In this document: in pieces, positions 6,707-17,886 of the stretch
Layout: each line of letters opens with the position of its first letter
How positions within the stretch are numbered: position 1 is the stretch's first letter
The notes under the pieces: model-generated
Seen by the model: only the letters and a program-made list of their open reading frames with translations
Told to the model about the DNA's origin: nothing
The model's database searches: none
IMG/VR virus record: IMGVR_UViG_3300000301_000103
Direction: 5' to 3' (one strand)
Length of the DNA stretch: 22,496 bases
From: a virus
Taxonomy: Duplodnaviria > Heunggongvirae > Uroviricota > Caudoviricetes
Translations under genes and position numbers: made by a program

Positions 6707-9437
6707 ATGGCAAAAGGAAAATCCGCACTGGCACTTGCTCTGAAAAAGAAAATCGGTAGCAACGACGAAATTCAGAAAGTAACTCATTGGATTGACACAG
6801 GCTTTCCTCCGTTAAACAAAGCTATTTCCGGTCGTTACGATGGCGGTTTCCCATGTGGTCGTATCGTAGAAGTATTCGGGCCACCAAGCGCGGGGAAATG
6901 TGTTACCGCAGACACCATGCTGCTGACGGAGCGTGGAATGGTAACAGTGAAAGAGTTGTTTGAGATTGAAGGGTACAAAGCGACATGCACTACTCGCGAT
7001 GTAGAGCATAACGTTGGACTCATCAATGAAAATGGCGTGATAGAGAAGACCTCACACCTGACATGGAACAACCGTCGCAAATTCAAGCGTATTAAGCTGG
7101 CATCAGGCGGTTATATCGAGGCTACGTTCCGTCACCCAATCCGTGTGGTTGACGACTTAGGTAATGTCGTCTGGCGACATGCTGAAAAAATCAGTGTAGG
7201 CGACACGATTCCTTCAATGGTTGGCACACATCAATTCGGCGATCAGCACCTGGATGCCAATATCGCAAAACTGATGGGCTATTTAATTGCTGACGGATAC
7301 GTGGCCTCTGAAAATTCAGTGAATTTTTCTAACACAGATCCTTTCATCAAGGATGAGTACTACCGCCTCATTTCGCTGGTATCAGACAAGATGCCAGTTG
7401 CGAGAAAACATAACGGCTCGGAAGACCATGTGCTGTTTAGCAAAGAGGTGCGTTCGCTGCTTTTTAAAGAATATGGTCTGGAGTATGAGAAAGCTGCTGG
7501 CAAGCAGGTTCCGTTGAGTGTGCGTCGCGCCAATAGCGAGGCTCAAATTGCATTCCTTCGCGGCTACTTTGAGCTGGAATGCCACGTCAATGATGGTCGC
7601 TGCATTGAGGTTGTGAGCGCGAGTGGGCTGCTGCTACAGCAAATTCGCCTCATGCTCCTGAATCTGGGGATTACGTCAACTATCTCTGAAAAACACGTCG
7701 CGGGTTATGAAAATACATATTACCGGCTGTCATTCAGTGGCTCTAATTACGACCTTTTTCTGTCAACGATTGGTTTCGAATCTCCGGCACGTTTATCAGT
7801 GGCAACCAAACGGGACATTGGTTTTGACCGCACTTACTCAGGCTATGTTCCGCACATCAGCGGCTTAGTGAAATCACTCNNNNNNNNNNNNNNNNNNNNN
7901 NNNNNNNNNNNNNNNNNNNNNNNNNNNNNNNNNNNNNNNNNNNNNNNNNNNNNNNNNNNNNNNNNNNNNNNNNNCACCCGTGAAGACTACGCTCTGGTAG
8001 ACCACGTTATTGGCCGCGGCGATCGTGTCGGAATAGACAAACTGCGAGAAATCTATGTCTCCTTCATTGGCAGAAAGAATCGTTTTAACGAGCATCTGTT
8101 TGCACAACTGGCAGCGGTAATTGGCTCTAACTTGTTCTACGACGAAGTCGTGGCTATTGAGGAAGGTGAAGCACCAACGTTCGACGTAGCGATGCCGGAA
8201 ACACACTCNNNNNNNNNNNNNNNNNNNNNNNNNNNNNNNNNNNNNNNNNNNNNNNNNNNNNNNNNNNNNNNNNNNNNNNNNNNNNNNNNNNNNNNNNNNN
8301 NNNNNNNNGCCACAACACATTCCTTGCAACAGCAGCGATGATCTCCGCTCAAAAACAAGATGGTCTGGCGGTATTCCTCGATCATGAAAACAGTTTTGAC
8401 GTTGGCCTGGCTGCAGCCAATGGCCTGAACGCAGATGAGGATGACGGTCAGTGGGTATACAAGCANNNNNNNNNNNNNNNNNNNNNNNNNNNNNNNNNNN
8501 NNNNNNNNNNNNNNNNNNNNNNNNNNNNNNNNNNNNNNNNNNNNNNNNNNNNNNNNNNNNNNNNNNNNNNNNNNNNNNNNNNNNNNNNNNNNNNNNNNNN
8601 NNNNNNNNNNNNNNNNNNNNNNNNNNNNNNNNNNNNNNNNATCGTGGCTGACTCTCTTGCGTCTATGGTTCCGAACTCCAAAGCCGAGAAGTTCGAAAAG
8701 ATGGCTGAAGGCACAGCCAAAGACAAAGATCAGCTAAACATGAACGACAATACGGCACTGGCTCGTGCGACGAGNNNNNNNNNNNNNNNNNNNNNNNNNN
8801 NNNNNNNNNNNNNNNNNNNNNNNNNNNNNNNNNNNNNNNNNNNNNNNNNNNNNNNNNNNNNNNNNNNNNNNNNNNNNNNNNNNNNCACGCAAATACAACG
8901 CCTGCATCATCTTCTTGAATCAGGTTCGCACAAAAATCGGTGTAATGTTTGGCGACCCTACTACGTCGCCAGGTGGAGATTCACCGAAGTTCTACGCTTC
9001 TGTACGTATCCGTCTTGGTGCATCGGTGATGAAGGATGGTAAAGAGAAGATCGGCCAGGACGTAGGCGCAGAATGCATCAAAAACAAAGTTGCACCACCG
9101 TATGGCAAATGCACCTGGAAATTCTACTTCGATCCTACTCGTGGCCTCGACGTTATCGAGTCGCTCGTCGAGTACATGCTGGAAGAAGGATACCTGCCAA
9201 AGAACGCCAGCGGTCGAGTAGAAATTGGTGACAAGAAATACACCAAATCACAAATCGTCGAGATGTATCGGGAGAAGCCACNNNNNNNNNNNNNNNNNNN
9301 NNNNNNNNNNNNNNNNNNNNNNNNNNNNNNNNNNNNNNNNNNNNNNNNNNNNNNNNNNNNNNNNNNNNNNNGCGGCTTTACAGGCAATCGACGACCGGAG
9401 ATCAAAAGACAATCCCACCGAGTCAGTAGAAGAGTAA
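6707..9437 (+). CDS. recA: RecA-family recombinase interrupted by an intein
   Basis: ATG preceded by AAAGGAG. Walker A GPPSAGK is followed directly by an intein; C-extein has IIFLNQVRTKIGVMFGDPTTSPGGDSPKFYASVRIRL, the RecA core signature. Four N-runs lie inside the gene and frames shift across three; stop TAA 9435-9437. Confidence 0.8.
6899..8316 (+). other. Intein with LAGLIDADG homing-endonuclease domain, inserted in the RecA P-loop
   Basis: Starts with Cys right after GPPSAGK (CVTADTMLL, block A); TxxH block B (EATFRHP); LAGLIDADG-like LMGYLIADGY and IAFLRGYFELE; block F-like TFDVAMPETH; ends HN followed by Thr (cac aac aca at 8311-8319). N-runs 7880-7974 and 8209-8308 lie inside. Confidence 0.7.
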
Positions 9438-9441
9438 ACAC

Positions 9442-9468
9442 AAGGCGTCCACAGGACGCCTTTTTTAT
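9442..9468 (+). terminator. Rho-independent terminator (AAGGCGTCC-ACA-GGACGCCTT + TTTTAT)
   Basis: 9-bp perfect stem and T-run 5 nt after the recA stop. Confidence 0.7.
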
Positions 9469-9480
9469 CTCTTGAAAATA

Positions 9481-10734: not shown

Positions 10735-11238
10735 ATGACAGCTATTAAGAAACTCTACGATGCCGCAAACGTGGCTCTGGATGTTATTGATGATGAAGTA
10801 GCAAAAGGCTTTCCTGAACCTGATTGGGCGCATCAGCTACGAAACGCTATCGCAGAAATGACCCCACCAGATCCAACCCCCGACGAGACAGACTGGCAGC
10901 GATTCATCCGTATGTACGCTCAGGAAATAGGTCCAACGCCAACGGCAGAGCAGGCAATGCTGCTGAAATACTTCAAAGAGGCGGGAGAGGATTTACCAAT
11001 TGATGACTCAGCATATTGGTTCCACNNNNNNNNNNNNNNNNNNNNNNNNNNNNNNNNNNNNNNNNNNNNNNNNNNNNNNNNNNNNNNNNNNNNNNNNNNN
11101 NNNNNNNNNNNNNGTAAGTATGACGTGATATTCACACAAGGCATGGGAAGCAAAGATATGGTTGTGTGGCATCTACTCCATATAGACACAGCCGTTGACA
11201 GAGTTATTGAACAGTTTTTCCCTAAACAAGAAGATTGA
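10735..11238 (+). CDS. Hypothetical protein (about 167 aa; N-run 11026-11113 inside)
   Basis: ATG preceded by AAAGGATAAGAAAAC; protein-like composition on both sides of the gap in the same frame. Confidence 0.55.
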   Translation: MTAIKKLYDAANVALDVIDDEVAKGFPEPDWAHQLRNAIAEMTPPDPTPDETDWQRFIRMYAQEIGPTPTAEQAMLLKYFKEAGEDLPIDDSAYWFHXXXXXXXXXXXXXXXXXXXXXXXXXXXXXXKYDVIFTQGMGSKDMVVWHLLHIDTAVDRVIEQFFPKQED

Positions 11239-11293
11239 TCGCCTATTCATAACTAACAAAATAAGTAAACACTAACCACAAAAGGAAAAACAC

Positions 11294-11569
11294 ATGAGAG
11301 TTTTAGTTCGAATCGTTACCAGCACTGTCTATGACGTGTTTCCACTTTTTATGATCAAAGTCGATGGCCTTAACGACGAAGAAACTGACGCGCTGATCCA
11401 GCGTACTCTTGTTGAATATACAGGTCATGACGCTGATTCAGTGATGGTTGATGATGATGGTGTTTGTTGGCATAACGGCAACTGTTGGTACGTAGAAGAG
11501 ACTCAACAAATCAGTGATGAAGATGCCGCACATCTTGAGCGTATTTTAAGCATCAGCACTTTTGAGTGA
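11294..11569 (+). CDS. Hypothetical acidic protein (91 aa)
   Basis: ATG preceded by the conserved AAAAGGAAAAACAC leader; no recognisable motifs. Confidence 0.55.
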   Translation: MRVLVRIVTSTVYDVFPLFMIKVDGLNDEETDALIQRTLVEYTGHDADSVMVDDDGVCWHNGNCWYVEETQQISDEDAAHLERILSISTFE

Positions 11570-11587
11570 GTTTACAGTAAAATTTAT

Positions 11588-11609
11588 ATAAGTTAGTATC
11601 TACCTATCA
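11588..11609 (+). promoter_or_regulatory. Recurrent imperfect palindrome site 4 (ATAAGTTAGTATCTACCTATCA)
   Basis: Same motif family, in the intergenic region after the 11569 stop. Confidence 0.4.
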
Positions 11610-11788
11610 TGAAGATTTTTATTGAATACTTGTTACTCATCGTTTCAATAGCTTTTGTCATCGACTGCATTTTCACCGGTGTCATTCGTAAAGTCTTTTC
11701 CCCGGTGAACGACGTAGTCATAAACGCTTTGGCTATCGTGCTCGTATTTAATTCAGCATTTGATGTAATCAAAGAGGTGGCAGCATGA
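11609..11788 (+). CDS. Possible small hydrophobic membrane protein (59 aa)
   Basis: ORF MKIFIEYLLLIVSIAFVIDCIF..., stop overlaps the next ATG (ATGA); no Shine-Dalgarno and the start sits inside the palindrome motif, so it may not be translated. Confidence 0.25.
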   Translation: MKIFIEYLLLIVSIAFVIDCIFTGVIRKVFSPVNDVVINALAIVLVFNSAFDVIKEVAA

Positions 11789-12120
11789 AGGCCATCCCAT
11801 TCGCTCTGTTGTTCCTTTCCTCGATCGTTGTGGCCGACACCACTGTTTATCAGTGTGAAATGTCTGTAGCCGACGTTAAGAATGGCGCTCTTACCGACGT
11901 CATAAAAGCACCATATGGAGCGATGGTCGTAGACAGCGGCGACCAGTTCTATGTTGTGCGTGACGATCGAGTGTTGTCATCCCCATATCTCACAAATCGT
12001 AATGGCAAATTAACCGGCGTCGGAGAAGACCACTTCGTATACAACAAATACAAGGGCTTCTATGGCGTTCACGCTTCTCAGCAAAGCTACCTTTTCGATG
12101 ACTGCAAGGAGGTTGGATAA
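11785..12120 (+). CDS. Secreted or periplasmic hypothetical protein (111 aa) with N-terminal signal peptide
   Basis: ATG preceded by AGAGGTGG; signal-peptide-like N-terminus MKAIPFALLFLSSIVVA. Confidence 0.6.
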   Translation: MKAIPFALLFLSSIVVADTTVYQCEMSVADVKNGALTDVIKAPYGAMVVDSGDQFYVVRDDRVLSSPYLTNRNGKLTGVGEDHFVYNKYKGFYGVHASQQSYLFDDCKEVG

Positions 12121-12332
12121 TGGCATTAACACTGGCAGGTCTGGAAATCGAGAAAACAAGCGGCTACTGGCGTGCTAAGGGTTTCAAGCAGCCTGGCATT
12201 CTTGAGCGTCTGGAACGTGAAGATGGGTATATCGTCCACCAGCGGCGTGAATGGCGTATGTACGATCCAGAAACAGGAAAACTGACTACAAAAGCCGGAA
12301 CACTTTGGGGCCTGTTGAAGAAAATACACTAA
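12120..12332 (+). CDS. Hypothetical basic protein (70 aa)
   Basis: ATG overlaps the upstream stop (TAATG), preceded by AAGGAGG. Confidence 0.5.
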   Translation: MALTLAGLEIEKTSGYWRAKGFKQPGILERLEREDGYIVHQRREWRMYDPETGKLTTKAGTLWGLLKKIH

Positions 12333-12342
12333 TAGCACCAAC

Positions 12343-12820
12343 CACTGCGGTGAGTAGCCAGCTCACCGCATTCGTATCAGCTCATTATCCACTGTGGTCT
12401 GCAGTCCTCTCTTCCTACATATCTGCTAACCACTGTAGCGAGTAGACAGCCTTTCATTCGCATCAAACAACCACTATGGTGAGTATTGGAGTGAGATGTC
12501 CAGCGGGTATCCACTATGGTGAGTAAGCCTTTGCTGTTTTCAGTGGATATCCACTCGCCACAGTGGATACGCTCAAAGATGAGGGCGACAACAACCACTA
12601 TAGACAGTAAATTTTCCAAGATACCCAGTGACCACTAACCTCGCAGCCCTTGTTTCATCAGTGTTAGTGATCACTAACATTTGATTCAGTATTTGCATTC
12701 TACTGCCTACAGTGGTTATCAACAGATAACGATACTCACTATAGTGGATAGCGAATTACAGATATAAGTAAGGCTCACTACAGTGGATAGTGAGCCTTAC
12801 TACTAACTACAGTGGTTGGG
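12343..12820. repeat. Iteron-like array downstream of repA: about 12 sites with core CCACT(A/G)T(A/G)G / CTA(T/C)AGTGG in both orientations, plus perfect palindromes
   Basis: CCACTATGGTGAGTA at 12471 and 12511; variants at 12343, 12430, 12595; CACTATAGTGGATAG at 12736; CACTACAGTGGATAG at 12777; palindromes GTGGATATCCAC (12543-12554) and GTTAGTGATCACTAAC (12663-12678). Confidence 0.7.
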
Positions 12821-13876
12821 CTATTTGCGAGTCTTTGCCTTGCGCAACTCTTCGAGAAGCGCCAGTTCTTCTTTACTCAACATGACCATTTTGCCTTCTT
12901 TTTCGTCAGGCACAACGTCGATAATGTCATCTTGATTCTCATCTGGGAGGCTATATTCCGTCTCATCATTATCGATTTTTGTTGATATTTGTGCCTGGCG
13001 TAACTTTGGCCGCCTATAGTGGATGACGAAGTAGACCGAGTTTCCGCGCTTAACTTCCGTGTAATCGAGATATCCTATCTCTCGCAGCTGTTCCATAGCC
13101 TTTCTTACCGTCGCATTCTGAGTAATAGTGCGACTTGTCAGATTAAGTCTGGCGCGTAAACGGGCTAGTGATATTGGTGCCGGATCAGGCGGCAAACTTT
13201 CAATAAAAGTATAAAGCGCCTGAGCGGATTCTTTTCTTGAGAGTTCGTTTATAGCCCGGAGTTGCAGAAGAACCTTTTTGTCGAACTGGTAGAGTTCGAA
13301 AATCTTGGGATCTGCTTTCAGTTCGACCGTATCGTGCTTGACACTATATTTTGCCGTTTGCACAAGATGCGTTACGTAAAACTCATCAGAGCCTTTGCTA
13401 CGGAACGAGATGGTATTTGTGGCAATACGGCTTAGCGAACTGTCCAGGCGTTTGCGTAACTTCGCTGATGACCTGGCGGTCGGAATGCCACACAGCCTTA
13501 CAAACTCAACGAACGGCAACGTGACAGTATCGCCAACGACCTTGTGTTTGGCAAACGCGTGGATTATTCCCACCCACGTTTTAAAGTCGTTATCCATATC
13601 AAGCCGAAGGCCAGAGATCCTTATGTCTTCGTACCCTTCGGCTTTTGCCAGAGACAGCTGTTTGAGTTCAGCAGAGGCATCCATAGAGACCATTTGCCCC
13701 TTTCTTCCTCTGGATGTCGATTTCAGCGTCGGAACGAAGAGGCCCAGACGCATCAAAGCAACAGGCTGAACAGTGTTATTAGTGTTAGGAACCAACGTAA
13801 CAACTTCGCCTGTCTTTTTATCTGTTTCTGAAAATGCTTCAACGATCGCTATGTTTTTATTGCCGTTTTCGCTCAT
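12821..13876 (-). CDS. repA: Plasmid-type replication initiator RepA (iteron-binding, Rep_3 / RepFIB / P1 RepA-like)
   Basis: 351-aa minus-strand ORF flanked on both sides by iteron arrays; two winged-helix-like halves and general resemblance to RepE/RepA initiators as I recall them. The ATG at 13874-13876 has only a weak Shine-Dalgarno. Confidence 0.75.
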
Positions 13877-13921
13877 TCCAAATGTCTCTTGTTATTCGAC
13901 GGCTTTGGTGGCCTTTGCTGA

Positions 13922-14036
13922 TTACAGTGGATAGTAGCACTCATCACAGCGGTTATCCTACCGTCTATAGTGGTTTTTCTCCTCTCTATAGTGGTTGCTT
14001 TGCTCCCTATAGTGGATTATTCGCTCTCTATAGTGG
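13922..14036. repeat. Iteron cluster A: six direct repeats (core CTATAGTGG) at 21-22 bp spacing, immediately upstream of repA
   Basis: Core 9-mers start at 13922, 13944, 13965, 13986, 14007 and 14028; the last four are exact CTATAGTGG. Confidence 0.8.
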
Positions 14037-14040
14037 ATAT

Positions 14041-14320
14041 CGATCATGTCTGAAGGCAGATGGCGCAACGGTTTGAGGTGGGCGGGGATCTTATTGGGTC
14101 TTTATGGGTCTCTTTGGTTCTCTTTGTGATCTGAATTACTGGATCGGGCCTGTGGATAAAATCAGAGGATTTCAAGAACAGGTAACTCTACTCTTCTGTG
14201 GATATTTAAGGACATAAGAATCATGACTAAGAGTAGAGTTTAAAATATATCTATGTATATCAGTATGTTAATGAAGAATTAAGTCATTAAGTTATCCATA
14301 AAAGACAATGTGCTCTACTC
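14041..14320. other. Putative origin spacer: degenerate GATC/GGTC block (14081-14145) and AT-rich segment containing a 12-bp inverted repeat (14184-14195 / 14229-14240)
   Basis: The block resembles the GATC cluster at 14464-14517 but with GGGTC/GGTTC in place of several GATC; AACTCTACTCTT and AAGAGTAGAGTT are exact reverse complements; 14200-14300 is AT-rich. Confidence 0.4.
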
Positions 14321-14321
14321 T

Positions 14322-14416
14322 CTACAGTGGATATATACAGCTCTCCAGAGTGGTTGTTTTACTCTTCATAGCGGTTATTCAGCTCTCTACAGAGGTTTCT
14401 TTGCTCTCCATAGTGG
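14322..14416. repeat. Iteron cluster B: five degenerate direct repeats (CTACAGTGG, CCAGAGTGG, TCATAGCGG, CTACAGAGG, CCATAGTGG) at about 21 bp spacing
   Basis: Repeat starts at 14322, 14343, 14366, 14387, 14408, same orientation as cluster A. Confidence 0.7.
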
Positions 14417-14463
14417 ATGGCAACACCCTTTCAGACCAGTAACCGCAACGGCTAGAGGCGATC

Positions 14464-14517
14464 GGGGATCTCTTTGGATCTTCTATTTGATCTTACTTGG
14501 GATCTCTTATTTGGATC
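14464..14517. promoter_or_regulatory. Cluster of five GATC sites at roughly helical-turn spacing (possible Dam-methylation-sensitive origin element)
   Basis: GATC at 14467, 14477, 14489, 14501 and 14514 within TTGGATCT-like repeats. Confidence 0.5.
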
Positions 14518-14618
14518 TATCCAGTGGATAACTGGGATAAGTAAAACAGGCAAATGCAGATTAAGGTATGCCTAATGAGTTATCGTAGCATCGGCCAATA
14601 ACTACTGAAAAAACGATT

Positions 14619-15263
14619 ATGGATCTAAAACGCACGCGCTGGGTTCGTCGTCTTGAGGACGGCTCCTACACTATCGAATCAAATTCCAACCTGAATAAGC
14701 AGAAGTTGCTTTGTGACATCTGCGGTATAGCGGCGAAGTGCCCGATCTACGAAACCAGAATTAAACTTGATAAGGCTGGTGTGAATTTTCATTTAAACAG
14801 TTGCATCAGGTACGTTCCATTGCTCGCATTTCGTAAACCGATCATCGGATTGGATGCACCCTACTTCAACACACTCCGTTCAGGTGTGACGTGGCAAGAT
14901 CGTTTATCACCAGACAAGCTGATTTGCCTTGTATCCGCAGACACAGGGAAAATCATCCGTTTTGGGAAAGTAGACAAGGTTTACTCAGGCCCAGTAGACG
15001 AAATGTTGCGGAAACACAGCCGGTTTAATCATCTCTGTATGGGTGGTGAGAAAATCGAGAAGGTAGAAGAAGTGATCCGCAAATCCTACGGACACTTCCT
15101 GACCAAAGATAGCCTGCTCACCGCAATCTACATCAGACATGTAAAACGTGAGTTCGACCTCGAATACCACAGTGAAGAAGAGCTTAACCTTGTTGACCCA
15201 CGTCCAAAAGCTGGCGTCATAAGCATAAACGCAGCGCGTAAAAAGCCCACTGAGACGTTTTAA
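14619..15263 (+). CDS. Hypothetical protein (214 aa)
   Basis: Long ORF in an otherwise empty interval; weak RBS; no recognisable motifs. Confidence 0.5.
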   Translation: MDLKRTRWVRRLEDGSYTIESNSNLNKQKLLCDICGIAAKCPIYETRIKLDKAGVNFHLNSCIRYVPLLAFRKPIIGLDAPYFNTLRSGVTWQDRLSPDKLICLVSADTGKIIRFGKVDKVYSGPVDEMLRKHSRFNHLCMGGEKIEKVEEVIRKSYGHFLTKDSLLTAIYIRHVKREFDLEYHSEEELNLVDPRPKAGVISINAARKKPTETF

Positions 15264-15338
15264 ACGTAATCTCAGGGTTTAACCGAGGCATAAAATATGG
15301 TGCATTAGAAAGACACTGAGGGCTTTTAGGATTAATAC

Positions 15339-15851
15339 ATGAGTGAATTTTATTCAAGGGCAGCAACTGTGACAGACATGCCTTTTATCATGGCTGAGTT
15401 CGAGGACGGCGCACGCAAAGGTCACTTCTACGAAGAGATCCTCACATCAAAGGGGGGGTAAAACCTTTGAGCAGCAGACCAGACTGGCAATCAAGACGAA
15501 CGAGCGGGGCCAATACTCCGGGCATTTTATCTACATCCTGCTGCATCGTTCTGATGACAAAAAGTAGGACTAATCTGGTTCTGTGCCGCACTCGATCCGA
15601 CTGGCGCACCTTGACTTGAACTCCGTGCCGTCAGTATTGTCAAAGAGCTTCGCGGAAAAGGCTATGGGTCAATGCTGGTGTCCGACATGATCGCATCAAA
15701 CCCTAGTCAGCCGACGATGGCAAAGNNNNNNNNNNNNNNNNNNNNNNNNNNNNNNNNNNNNNNNNNNNNNNNNNNNNNNNNNNNNNNNNNNNNNNNNNNN
15801 NNNNNNNNNNNNNNNNNNNNNNNNNNNNNNTGCTGTTTCGCGACCCAAAAT
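15339..15851 (+). pseudogene. Disrupted GNAT-family N-acetyltransferase
   Basis: Frame 0 MSEFYSRAATVTDMPFIMAEFEDGARKGHFYEEILTSKGG stops after a G7 run (15452-15458). It continues in frame +1 (KTFEQQTRLAIKTNERGQYSGHFIYILLHRSDDKK, TAG 15565), then frame 0 (GLIWFCAALDPTGAP, TGA 15612), then LELRAVSIVKELRGKGYGSMLVSDMIA with a GNAT motif-A-like R-G-x-G-x-G. N-run 15726-15830 follows. Confidence 0.55.
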
Positions 15852-16614: not shown

Positions 16615-17886
16615 ATGACTTTGCCATACGGCGTCATTTCTGACTGCCACTACCACAAATGGGATGCGTTCTCCACGACGAACGCTGAGGGGCTTAACTC
16701 CAGACTTGAAATACAGTTGGAAGCAACGAAAGAAGCAGCCATCGCCATGAAGAAGGCCGGTTGTAAGTACATGTTGGTTGCCGGTGATACATTTCACGTC
16801 CGAGGAACTGTGTCCCCTTCTGTTTTGCATTACGTAACTGAAACGTACAAGTGGATTATCAACGAGCTTGATCTGACAGTAGTAATGCTGGCCGGTAATC
16901 ACGATCTTGAAACCAACGATTCAGTATATAGCGCCAACGCAGCAGCATCGCTGAGTTCTATCGGCGTGGTAATCGTATGTGGCAAACGCCCACACTCAAT
17001 AAAAATTGGTGATGTGACTGTCCACCTGATTAGCTGGCGTAACAATCATGCGGAGCTTATCAGCGATCTGAAAGCATTACGTAAGAGCGTAGAAGGTGAT
17101 AATCATGACGTTGTTATCCATACATCCATTAACAAAGCCATTCCAACAATGCCTGACGTCGGTATCGATGCGCAGGAGTTAAAGGATATCGGCTTTCGTC
17201 TCGTGCTTAGTGGGCATTACCACAACCACAAAGAGGTCATTCCTGGAGTTATCAGTGTCGGTGCGCTGACCCATCAAAATTGGGGAGATGTTGGATCTCT
17301 GGCTGGTTACATGATCGTAAACCCGGACGGCAGTTTCAGTCACTACGAAACCAGTGCGCCTAAATTCATTAACCTGGAAGATTATGTTGCCGATGACCAA
17401 ATTCGCGGCAACTACGTGCGTTTCCGCGCCGTAATTGAGAACGATGAAGAAGGCATTAAGTACCAGAACATCCTCAAAACAATGGGTGCAAAAGGTGTCG
17501 TGTGCAACTTCATCCGTAAGTCATCAATGATGGAAGGGACAGCAAGCACAACGGAAACCAGCAAAATCGATAGCCTGGGAGAGTCGGTATCTGCTTATTG
17601 CAAGATTGTCCACGATACTGACGGCGGATTTGATCTGAGCAAGTTGGATATTTTGTGTCAGGAAATCCTCACNNNNNNNNNNNNNNNNNNNNNNNNNNNN
17701 NNNNNNNNNNNNNNNNNNNNNNNNNNNNNNNNNNNNNNNNNNNNNNNNNNNNNNNNNNNNNNNNNNNNNNNNNNNNNNNNNNNNNNNNNNNNNNNNNNNN
17801 NNNNNNNNNNNNNNNNNNNNNNNNNNNNNNNNNNNNNNNNNNNNNNNNNNNNNNNNNNNNNNNNNNNNNNNAAGGAAATCCCGTAG
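16615..17886 (+). CDS. sbcD: SbcD/Mre11-family nuclease (calcineurin-like phosphoesterase)
   Basis: ATG preceded by AAAGGAAAAACAC; phosphoesterase motifs DCHYH, GDTFH, GNHD and GHYHNH. N-run 17673-17871 hides the C-terminal region; the end is either TAG 17884-17886 or, in another frame, TGA 18006-18008 overlapping the sbcC start. Confidence 0.8.
   Translation: MTLPYGVISDCHYHKWDAFSTTNAEGLNSRLEIQLEATKEAAIAMKKAGCKYMLVAGDTFHVRGTVSPSVLHYVTETYKWIINELDLTVVMLAGNHDLETNDSVYSANAAASLSSIGVVIVCGKRPHSIKIGDVTVHLISWRNNHAELISDLKALRKSVEGDNHDVVIHTSINKAIPTMPDVGIDAQELKDIGFRLVLSGHYHNHKEVIPGVISVGALTHQNWGDVGSLAGYMIVNPDGSFSHYETSAPKFINLEDYVADDQIRGNYVRFRAVIENDEEGIKYQNILKTMGAKGVVCNFIRKSSMMEGTASTTETSKIDSLGESVSAYCKIVHDTDGGFDLSKLDILCQEILXXXXXXXXXXXXXXXXXXXXXXXXXXXXXXXXXXXXXXXXXXXXXXXXXXXXXXXXXXXXXXXXXXXKEIP

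Follow-up and report, generated by a model that had tools for sequence, protein, structure and literature searches.

A P1 oriR/RepFIB-Type Iteron Replicon with an Apparently Duplicated Origin in an SSU5-Type Phage-Plasmid

Introduction

Can the virus (Caudoviricetes) recorded in IMG/VR as IMGVR_UViG_3300000301_000103 also be maintained as a plasmid, and which replicon would maintain it? The question is raised by a repA gene that lies between arrays of repeats. The whole stretch of DNA analyzed, 22,496 nucleotides in length, is here called the window. The genes flanking the repeats encode DnaE, UvsY, a gp32-like SSB, an exonuclease, an intein-bearing RecA, SbcCD, RuvC, and NrdA. The window contains 19 masked runs of N, none of which falls in the replicon region. 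A preliminary description, made from the sequence alone, proposed an iteron-controlled origin similar to P1 oriR/incA and RepFIB, and a phage-plasmid as its carrier. The analysis supports this reading of the raw sequence as correct; the catalogued status of the replicon was not visible to it.

Identity and Distribution of the Element

The window is matched at 98.8–100% identity by Escherichia phage Cyrano (pLF82), and likewise by some 60 plasmids of E. coli. These plasmids belong to the SSU5/pHCM2/pMT1 phage-plasmid family, and they are typed IncFIB. Cyrano is 98.8% identical to the window with 84% coverage of the 22.5 kb, and 99.3% identical across the replicon region. Plasmid CP146383 is 100% identical to the region. 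Over repA and both repeat regions, Cyrano/pLF82 and plasmids of E. coli, E. albertii, E. marmotae, and Shigella show 99.3–100% nucleotide identity. The flanking genes are the same in the Cyrano/pLF82 lineage, there is essentially no difference within the replicon, and Cyrano differs only outside it.

In total, 339 plasmid records gave a match, and those retrieved are IncFIB. MOB-suite also types the replicon as IncFIB. Among 5426 complete E. coli genomes, the replicon is present in 129 (2.4% of the collection searched) at 172 places, all of which are plasmid-borne and none chromosomal.

The copy number of Cyrano has been measured as 5.5; ciprofloxacin induces the phage, which produces virions (PMC9928086). 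The proposed phage-plasmid nature is thus established for a relative with 99.3% identity. The SSU5 supercommunity has been typed as IncFIB (PMC7969092), and the replicon label "pLF82-PhagePlasmid" is in use in published papers. Synteny and near-identity with Cyrano, which is both a plasmid and a virion-forming phage, place the element among the SSU5/pHCM2-type phage-plasmids. The replicon is therefore an already catalogued one: it belongs to a phage-plasmid that is common in E. coli, and it is of the IncFIB type.

The RepA Initiator

The repA gene (12821–13876, minus strand) encodes a 351-aa initiator of the Rep_3 family, of the RepFIB/P1 RepA lineage, and predicted to bind iterons. The HMM search suggested in the preliminary description gave scores above the curated cutoffs for both winged-helix domains of Rep_3 initiators (Pfam PF01051 and PF21205): 42.2 bits for Rep3_N (WH1 domain; cutoff 22.4, E = 1.3e-10) and 22.6 bits for Rep3_C (WH2 domain; cutoff 21.1). 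RepA is 100% identical to that of Cyrano. It is homologous to the initiators of both reference systems, with 60% identity to the RepFIB initiator of the F plasmid (E = 5e-143) and 49% to P1 RepA (E = 5e-93). RepFIB of F/P307 (REPI of pColV-K30) is the closest classical initiator, and its 60% identity covers almost the whole protein and takes in the C-terminal extension. RepA here is about 58 residues longer at the C-terminus than P1 RepA.

No NCBIfam model matched RepA, and a PDB sequence search with RepA gave no solved structure at E ≤ 1. Rfam had no match at E ≤ 1 to positions 12100–14800, and thus gives no hint of a known antisense-RNA control.

The Iterons

Iterons were searched for with a 22-nt matrix derived from the 11 upstream repeats, at a threshold of at least 15 bits. 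The scan found 24 sites, every one within 12337–14421, and 13 of the 24 are outside the training set of the matrix. Dinucleotide shuffles of the window contained 0.11 sites on average and two at maximum. Six plus five of the sites are upstream of repA, 12 are downstream, and one is inside repA. The preliminary description had reported arrays on both sides of repA, with six upstream repeats at 21–22-bp spacing, a second cluster of five, and about twelve downstream sites in both orientations. All of these were recovered by the scan, with 11 sites upstream and 12 downstream. What did not hold is the repeat unit, which had been taken as the self-complementary core CCACTATAGTGG. The exact 12-mer is absent from the window because the iterons are directional, and it is seen once when one mismatch is allowed. 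The unit is roughly TnnGCTCTCTAYAGTGGWT, and its dyad is only partial.

The repA-proximal array (13914–14041, plus strand) consists of six iterons starting at 13914, 13936, 13957, 13978, 13999, and 14020, with spacings of 22, 21, 21, 21, and 21 bp. Six iterons are seen in all five relatives examined, and 82% of the columns are invariant. This array could be the RepA operator over the repA promoter. Consensus scanning of the window and its relatives found no conserved sigma-70 promoter for repA, and therefore the operator role is proposed from the analogy with P1 only. Sigma-70 candidates, such as 14043–14016, were rejected because the relatives do not keep them.

The distal array (14314–14421, plus strand) consists of five iterons starting at 14314, 14337, 14358, 14379, and 14400, with spacings of 23, 21, 21, and 21 bp. 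Every relative has five iterons here, and even the individual core variants AGCGG and AGAGG are kept. Iterons phased at about 21 bp upstream of the initiator gene are a feature of P1 oriR/RepFIB-type origins; P1 has five at 21–22 bp, and here there are six plus five.

Downstream of repA, 12 iterons found by the matrix scan are spaced mostly by 29–47 bp at 12337–12820, and six are on each strand. Those on the minus strand start at 12337, 12384, 12425, 12466, 12506, and 12590, and those on the plus strand at 12530, 12550, 12699, 12731, 12770, and 12799. The array occupies the entire convergent intergenic region and touches the stop codon of repA. Its repA-adjacent iterons are oriented like the origin iterons. 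A mixed-orientation array at the 3' side of repA corresponds to incA of P1, in which three direct iterons and then six inverted ones are spaced by 30–41 bp, a similar design. The number of downstream iterons varies among relatives: 8 in pMT1, 12 in pHCM2, and 15 in SSU5. Inside the array is an iteron-free island (12612–12698), which contains two ACCACTAAC-type motifs and the 14-bp palindrome TTAGTGATCACTAA, centered on the GATC at 12669. The island and its motifs are kept in SSU5, pMT1, pHCM2, and E. coli AH04.

The intragenic iteron (13006–13027, plus strand; matrix scan) overlaps repA codons 284–290 (VIHYRRP). Arg288 is encoded by the rare codon AGG, which preserves the CCACTATAG core of this iteron. 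The iteron is seen at the equivalent place in SSU5, pMT1, pHCM2, C. freundii, and E. coli AH04, and the motif, found in 33 relatives, is encoded with an AGR codon in 19 of them.

Three small ORFs (13834–14076, 14310–14531, and 12377–12619) were treated as spurious because they are made of iterons. No gene is annotated at the two upstream ones in the Cyrano and RefSeq records examined. A 46-aa ORF within the downstream array is listed in the pHCM2 and C. freundii records.

The Two Origin Cores

The distal oriR core (14460–14517) contains six GATC (Dam) sites in 58 bp, at 14460, 14467, 14477, 14489, 14501, and 14514, and five of them are within AGATCCA-type heptamers. The five sites at 14467–14517 recognized at first are included in these six. 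None of 2000 shuffles contained six GATC in 55 bp, and all six sites are invariant across six aligned relatives. The core is followed by tandem DnaA boxes (TTATCCCAG and TTATCCACT; 14523–14540, minus strand), which constitute an 18-nt site. They are at the position equivalent to the annotated 18-nt DnaA site of P1 oriR, and the P1 string TTATCCACTGGATAGATCCAA is identical. The distal DnaA-box/GATC block, with its linker, is identical to the P1 oriR core at 104 of 144 positions (72%), and the alignment scores 103, where shuffles reach 22 ± 4.5. The distal copy therefore has a P1 oriR/RepFIB-type organization, a GATC-heptamer cluster beside iterons and next to DnaA boxes. By analogy, the distal core may be the methylation-dependent unwinding element and a target of SeqA.

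The degenerate GATC block noted in the preliminary description is real (14084–14145, minus strand), and it is a copy of the oriR core, which had not been recognized. It consists of six heptamers. Three of the six retain GATC, at 14087, 14128, and 14142, and the other three are GAACC or GACCC, so it corresponds in part to the GATC-heptamer cluster of the P1 type. Its alignment score against the P1 oriR core is 64 (shuffles 23 ± 4.8), and it is homologous to the distal copy as well. The pattern of GAACC and GACCC is near-identical in six aligned relatives, and E. coli AH04 has GAACC in place of the middle GACCC. Random decay of this block was rejected, since the pattern is kept in six relatives that are 77–83% identical overall, and the block is the best-conserved segment of the region. 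At its outer edge is the DnaA box TTATCCACA (14151–14159, minus strand), where the relatives have TTATACACA.

The spacer between the two copies (14160–14313) is AT-rich here, with a GC content of 29%. The AT-rich segment of the preliminary description is found at 14200–14299 (GC 25%), and its 12-bp inverted repeat is a perfect one, at 14184–14195 and 14229–14240. DnaA-like boxes are present in the spacer at 14197–14205 (minus strand) and 14292–14300 (plus strand). The spacer shows the lowest conservation in the region (63% identity). Relatives lack the repeat, and their spacers have a GC content of 39–43%; the spacer with its inverted repeat was therefore rejected as a family-wide unwinding element. 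The least stable DNA in the window is the spacer, not either GATC block. In five of six relatives, the distal block has the lowest or second-lowest stability of all 40-mers.

These sequences indicate that the entire origin is a tandem duplication of about 380 bp, and the degenerate GATC block is its second, conserved core copy. The duplication is common to SSU5, pMT1, and pHCM2. Two core blocks are present in 40 of 78 related replicons surveyed. Among these 40, the distal block has 5–6 GATC sites in 39, the proximal block has 2–5, and the distal block exceeds the proximal one in 38. Many Rahnella, Erwinia, Pantoea, Kluyvera, and Xenorhabdus replicons also have the duplicated core. Only one origin copy is seen in P1, F, and the Klebsiella and PhiR41_1 replicons. 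No description of a two-copy origin core was found in the literature searched, a scope outside which the primary pMT1, pHCM2, and plasmid-prophage papers lie.

Comparison with Known Replicons

The RepA proteins of Salmonella phage SSU5, S. Typhi pHCM2, and Y. pestis pMT1 are 91–92% identical to RepA here. The three replicons share the six plus five upstream iterons, the pattern of GATC and degenerate GATC, and the intragenic iteron. The nucleotide comparison that had been suggested as a check gave 83% identity for SSU5 over the 2.3-kb region and 80–81% for pMT1 and pHCM2 over the 742-bp upstream part, besides the identities with the P1 oriR core given above. They differ in the spacer between the copies, which is not AT-rich and is without the 12-bp inverted repeat.

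P1 has the same order of elements: tandem DnaA boxes, five GATC heptamers (AGATCCA), five 21-bp-phased iterons, repA, and a downstream control array. The layout of the region agrees with the annotated P1 map, oriR/incC–repA–incA. The resemblance to P1 oriR/incA and RepFIB that had been seen in the raw sequence thus holds for the initiator, the core, and the layout. The differences are that P1 has a single origin copy where there are two in tandem here, that the P1 iteron is unrelated (GATGTGTGCTGGAGGGAAA against TCTCTATAGTGGAT), and that P1 alone has parAB immediately following incA and additional DnaA boxes in the interval from the iterons to repA. In RepFIB of F, similarly, the repeats nearest to repA have five GATC sites and a DnaA box upstream of them, and further repeats lie at the 3' side of repA. 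It differs in having one origin copy and another iteron sequence, and F is a conjugative plasmid, not a phage-plasmid.

Some SSU5-like phage-plasmids, namely PhiR41_1 and CMS-2020a of E. coli and the Klebsiella pKpn group, carry an alternative cassette. The conserved DnaA/GATC block and the genome position are the same. The flanks, which in PhiR41_1 are phage genes, are 96% identical in PhiR41_1 and CMS-2020a, and the repA and iteron set of these two phages are different. The RepA of PhiR41_1 is 46–49% identical and that of Klebsiella about 51%. The iterons of this group are GTATGCTGTCAGCGGT, and their one origin copy lies between DnaA boxes, exactly the P1 layout. The homology to PhiR41_1 and CMS-2020a ends at 12332 and restarts near 14430, inside the DnaA/GATC block. 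The repA gene and the iteron set are swapped jointly between shared flanks, and therefore RepA and its iterons travel as one specificity cassette.

Proposed Mechanism and Alternatives

Sequence homology, repeat anatomy, conservation, and an exclusively plasmid location are all observed for this region. Positions 12337–14540 are very probably the maintenance replicon of a plasmid prophage of the SSU5 type (Cyrano/pLF82, IncFIB), which would replicate by iteron-controlled theta replication of the P1 oriR/RepFIB type. We infer each biochemical step, and the division of labor between the copies, by analogy with the known systems. From the homology with P1 and RepFIB, RepA monomers would bind the 21-bp-phased iterons, and DnaA would bind the tandem boxes at 14523–14540. 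RepA and DnaA would together open the adjoining Dam-methylated GATC-heptamer block at 14460–14517. Once the origin has fired, SeqA would sequester the hemimethylated GATC sites. RepA on the proximal array (13914–14041) would repress its own promoter. The 12 downstream iterons (12337–12820) would titrate RepA and handcuff the origin iterons, which would keep the element at few copies per chromosome. Firing would occur at the distal copy, which keeps all its GATC sites and the strongest similarity to P1. For the proximal copy, whose iterons are intact but whose GATC sites are partly lost, the main role would be that of repA operator, together with an additional control function. The sequences suggest such a split between origin and repA operator. 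The invariant distal GATC sites, their excess over the proximal ones in the replicons with two blocks, and the low stability of the distal block in relatives speak for the distal copy as origin, and the spacer as the least stable DNA of the window speaks against it. It can also be speculated that the duplication is old and selectively maintained rather than decaying, and that either the two jobs of P1 incC have been divided or the copies are differently regulated origins; this is possible, and we hold it only tentatively.

The roles could be reversed. The proximal copy (13914–14159) could be the functional origin and the positional orthologue of P1 oriR, and the distal copy an auxiliary element, acting as enhancer, as reserve origin, or as partner in incompatibility or handcuffing. 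The proximal block is at −283 to −174 from repA, which is where P1, F, and 25 Pantoea replicons with one copy have their only block. It shows 93% identity between the window and the others, with 85% of its columns invariant, its heptamers retain a 10–14-bp phasing, and the box at 14151–14159 is perfect, unlike every other DnaA box in the region. Its conservation, P1-like position, and perfect DnaA box mean that the proximal copy could be the real origin or a second one. However, half of its heptamers are without GATC, in nearly the same way in six aligned relatives, and P1 oriR reportedly requires methylated heptamers. The proximal copy is also less similar to the P1 core than the distal one (64 versus 103), and by low stability it falls within the first four segments in pHCM2 alone, where it ranks third. 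We consider this reversal rather unlikely.

Another explanation is that both copies fire, as alternative RepA-dependent origins coupled strongly and weakly to Dam/SeqA, for example for steady-state maintenance and for establishment after infection or induction. From Enterobacteriaceae to Erwiniaceae, the complete set of iterons is retained in both copies, together with a DnaA box and the phasing of the heptamers, and some Pantoea replicons have 4–6 GATC sites in each copy. However, an origin plus an operator explains the conservation of both copies equally well, and two firing origins appear less likely still.

Plasmid centromeres too have direct-repeat arrays, but it is extremely improbable that the repeats are a partition centromere, a transcriptional operator array, or a product of chance instead of a replication origin, since they flank a Rep_3 initiator 49–60% identical to proven initiators, are phased at 21–23 bp beside DnaA boxes and GATC heptamers homologous to P1 oriR, number 24 where 0.11 are expected, and switch in sequence along with repA in the cassette swaps.

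Implications

As a find, this is an ordinary, known replicon, and the duplicated origin core is the sole part perhaps worth experiments. SSU5-type phage-plasmids carry resistance genes, and the copy number, which is set by the replicon, influences gene dosage. If the origin and the repA operator are indeed split between the two copies, the family would be a natural test case of how initiation in iteron replicons is kept apart from autoregulation and from Dam/SeqA coupling.

Iteron Arrays and RepA

A 22-nt weight matrix was built from 11 upstream repeats, and both strands of the window were scanned with a cut-off of at least 15 bits. The scan recovers 24 iterons (RepA-type repeat units), all within 12337–14421, and 13 of them are outside the training set of the matrix. 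Dinucleotide shuffles of the window contain 0.11 sites on average and two at most. The repA-proximal array has six units (starts 13914, 13936, 13957, 13978, 13999, and 14020), and the distal array, farther upstream of repA, has five (starts 14314, 14337, 14358, 14379, and 14400). Twelve sites, six per strand, are downstream at 12337–12820, and one is inside repA (13006–13027). The upstream arrays of six and five units and the roughly twelve downstream sites in both orientations had been noticed in a preliminary description. Its GATC cluster is also real: six GATC are seen in 14460–14517, and none of 2000 shuffles reaches six within 55 bp. The 12-bp inverted repeat reported there is perfect, and the GC content of the AT-rich stretch falls to 25%. 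The iteron core, on the other hand, was described as self-complementary, and this does not hold. The exact 12-mer CCACTATAGTGG is absent from the window, and the unit is directional, approximately TnnGCTCTCTAYAGTGGWT, and its dyad symmetry is only partial.

The gene repA (12821–13876, minus strand) encodes a protein of 351 aa, which matches Pfam Rep3_N and Rep3_C, both over curated cutoffs. Over nearly its full length, RepA shares 60% identity with the plasmid F RepFIB initiator (E 5e-143); its identity to P1 RepA is 49% (E 5e-93). The NCBIfam search gave no model for RepA, and a sequence search of solved structures gave no match. The intragenic iteron is conserved and spans repA codons 284–290 (VIHYRRP). 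For Arg288 the gene has the rare codon AGG, which preserves the CCACTATAG core; one relative has AGA. The motif could be located in 33 relatives, 19 of which have AGR at this position; F RepFIB has CGG. This suggests a dual constraint on the intragenic iteron, as coding sequence and as binding site.

Relation to P1, RepFIB, and Known Phage-Plasmids

The likeness to P1 oriR and RepFIB, proposed from the layout, is borne out by the core sequence. The repA-strand sequence of 14540–14440, CTTATCCCAGTTATCCACTGGATAGATCCAAATAAGAGATCCCAAGTAAGATCAAATAGAAGATCCAAAGAGATCCCCGATCG, and the P1 oriR core, CTTATCCACATTATCCACTGGATAGATCCAATAATCAGGTCCATACAGATCCCAATTAGATCCATATAGATCCCTGATCG, share 104 identities in 144 positions. 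Their alignment scores 103, whereas shuffles score 22 ± 4.5. The curated P1 record contains an 18-nt DnaA site, five Dam sites, five RepA iterons (incC) with the repA promoter inside them, repA, and nine incA iterons. The window has the identical set of parts in the identical order. As in P1 incA, the downstream array is in origin orientation near repA and inverted farther out, with a spacing of ~30–47 bp, not 21 bp. F RepFIB also has a core of a DnaA box and five GATC upstream of its own repeats.

The 2.3-kb replicon region shares 99.3% identity with Escherichia phage Cyrano (OV696614) and 83% with Salmonella phage SSU5. Dozens of plasmids of 100–166 kb from E. coli, E. albertii, E. marmotae, and Shigella are 99–100% identical to it. 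In total, 339 plasmid records match, Yersinia, Salmonella, Enterobacter, and Citrobacter among them, and the matching records that were fetched are typed by MOB-suite as IncFIB and non-mobilizable. Among 5426 complete E. coli genomes, 129 contain the replicon; its 172 occurrences there are all plasmid-borne, none chromosomal. The whole window is 98.8% identical to Cyrano over 84% of its length. E. coli LF82 harbours Cyrano as plasmid pLF82, a demonstrated phage-plasmid with 5.5 copies per chromosome, which produces virions and is inducible by ciprofloxacin (PMC9928086). According to Pfeifer et al., most IncFIB-typed phage-plasmids belong to the SSU5 supercommunity (PMC7969092), and the replicon label 'pLF82-PhagePlasmid' is routine in typing papers. 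The element is thus almost certainly an SSU5-type phage-plasmid with an iteron replicon of the P1 oriR/RepFIB type. The proposal of an iteron origin on a phage-plasmid is correct and already known, since the replicon is catalogued, the lineage is experimentally characterised, and nearly identical records are in the databases.

In the Cyrano annotation, RepA is preceded by DnaE, HicAB, UvsY, a gp32-like SSB, an exonuclease, RecA, an SPFH protein, and a Cra-like protein, and followed by an ASCH protein, SbcD, SbcC, RuvC, and NrdA. Pfam scanning of the ORFs in the window agrees with this. The replicon is adjoined by the 70-aa 'P1 Cra protein' (12120–12332) and the 214-aa ASCH-domain protein (14619–15263), both so named in Cyrano; neither has a Pfam or NCBIfam match at the thresholds applied. 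In P1, par genes adjoin the replicon, whereas none do here. An intein carrying a LAGLIDADG homing endonuclease splits the RecA-like recombinase gene (6707–9475). Matches to Pfam LAGLIDADG_3 and Intein_splicing fall in 6707–8341, the RecA C-terminal part is in 8765–9475, and RefSeq labels the entire gene 'LAGLIDADG family homing endonuclease'. In the window, 1962 bases are N-masked in 19 runs of 68–199 nt (e.g., 1254–1337, 8466–8640, and 17673–17871). These break the ORF calls of DnaE, RecA, SbcD/SbcC, and NrdA. All are outside 11114–15725, and the replicon is untouched.

Tandem Duplication of the Origin Core

Four repeat families (D1, D7, D8, and D13) all have an offset of 372–380 bp. This indicates that a unit of five iterons, the linker CGCAACGG, a block of heptamers, and a DnaA box is present twice in tandem, the proximal copy having one more iteron. 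A degenerate GATC block at 14084–14145 had been correctly noticed, but it was not recognised as the heptamer block of a second origin copy. It is homologous to the distal block and to the P1 core, and three of its six heptamers have GAACC or GACCC in place of GATCC.

The window was aligned with SSU5, pMT1, pHCM2, a C. freundii plasmid, and a divergent E. coli plasmid (77–83% identical overall). Across the six sequences, the degenerate heptamers hardly differ, one sequence having GAACC for the middle GACCC; random decay of the block is thereby ruled out. All six distal GATC sites are likewise kept in each of them. The two-copy layout and the same iteron family are also seen in a 184-kb plasmid of Pantoea agglomerans, whose RepA is 68% identical. 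No description of a tandem oriR core duplication was found in the papers that were accessible.

The distribution was surveyed in 80 species-representative loci with RepA relatives (62–91% identity). The 1 kb upstream of each repA was searched with the DnaA/GATC block of P1 itself, a probe not derived from the window. Upstream sequence was sufficient in 78 loci. Two blocks are present in 40 of them, the distal block ~480–690 bp upstream of repA with 5–6 GATC and the proximal block ~170–300 bp upstream with 2–5 GATC. GATC are more numerous in the distal block at 38 of these 40 loci. A single block is seen in 25 loci at −260 to −173 from repA, where P1 has its single block; 24 of the 25 are Pantoea contigs (RepA 65–68% identical). 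The other 13 loci do not fall clearly into either class. One origin copy is likewise seen in P1, F, the Klebsiella pKpn group, and E. coli PhiR41_1. These single copies and the surveyed positions indicate that the proximal copy is at the ancestral position but is the one that loses Dam sites. Judged by sequence, the added distal copy keeps its Dam sites and is nearer to P1.

Close RepA relatives (62–72% identity) are also seen beyond Enterobacteriaceae/Erwiniaceae, in a Tolumonas MAG (L057, an Aeromonadales contig) and in Photorhabdus and Xenorhabdus (L064–L069). In these, the distance between GATC block and repA is unusual, −320 to −870.

Possible Roles of the Two Copies

Replication of P1 and RepFIB is known to involve RepA, DnaA, Dam/SeqA, autorepression, and iteron pairing. 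By homology, RepA monomers would bind the phased iterons and DnaA the tandem boxes, and the Dam-methylated heptamer block between them would open. SeqA would then sequester the hemimethylated GATC sites. RepA on the proximal iterons would repress repA, and the downstream array would limit copy number by titrating RepA and pairing with the origin iterons.

We tentatively favour a reading in which the two copies divide these tasks, the distal copy firing as the origin and the proximal copy serving as the operator of repA and an extra pairing site, and consider it possible rather than probable. The pattern of GATC retention speaks for it, as does the fact that the distal copy resembles P1 more closely; moreover, duplex stability at the distal block is low in five of six relatives. 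Two alternatives are live: the proximal copy is the origin, or both copies fire. Several facts count against a division of labour. The proximal block is the best-conserved segment of the control region, with 93% identity between the window and the others; in the same alignment the distal GATC block reaches 81% and the spacer 63%. It occupies the ancestral position, and the proximal copy has the one perfect DnaA box in the region. The least stable DNA in the window is the lineage-specific AT-rich spacer, and no conserved sigma-70 promoter for repA was found.

Downstream Array and Exchange of the Replicon Cassette

The upstream arrays of six and five iterons are invariant among the window and its five relatives (L004–L008), while downstream, incA-like iterons differ in number: 8 in pMT1, 12 in the window and pHCM2, and 13–15 in the C. 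freundii plasmid, E. coli AH04, and SSU5. The downstream number could tune the copy number. In the middle of this array is an iteron-free island of 87 bp (12612–12698), and P1 incA has no comparable gap. The island contains two ACCACTAAC-type motifs. These are conserved in SSU5, pMT1, pHCM2, and E. coli AH04, and the alternative cassette of PhiR41_1 and Klebsiella has partly recognisable versions of them. The island in the window also contains a 14-bp palindrome, TTAGTGATCACTAA, centred on GATC.

PhiR41_1 and CMS-2020a are ~96% identical to the left 12.3 kb of the window. The homology ends at 12332, five bases short of the first downstream iteron, and restarts near 14430, within the DnaA/GATC block. 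Between these shared phage flanks, they have another RepA (only ~49% identical), different iterons (GTATGCTGTCAGCGGT), and a single P1-like origin. The two breaks indicate that RepA and its iterons have been swapped as one specificity unit. The part interacting with host factors is shared between the cassettes, a pattern as expected of a plasmid replicon.
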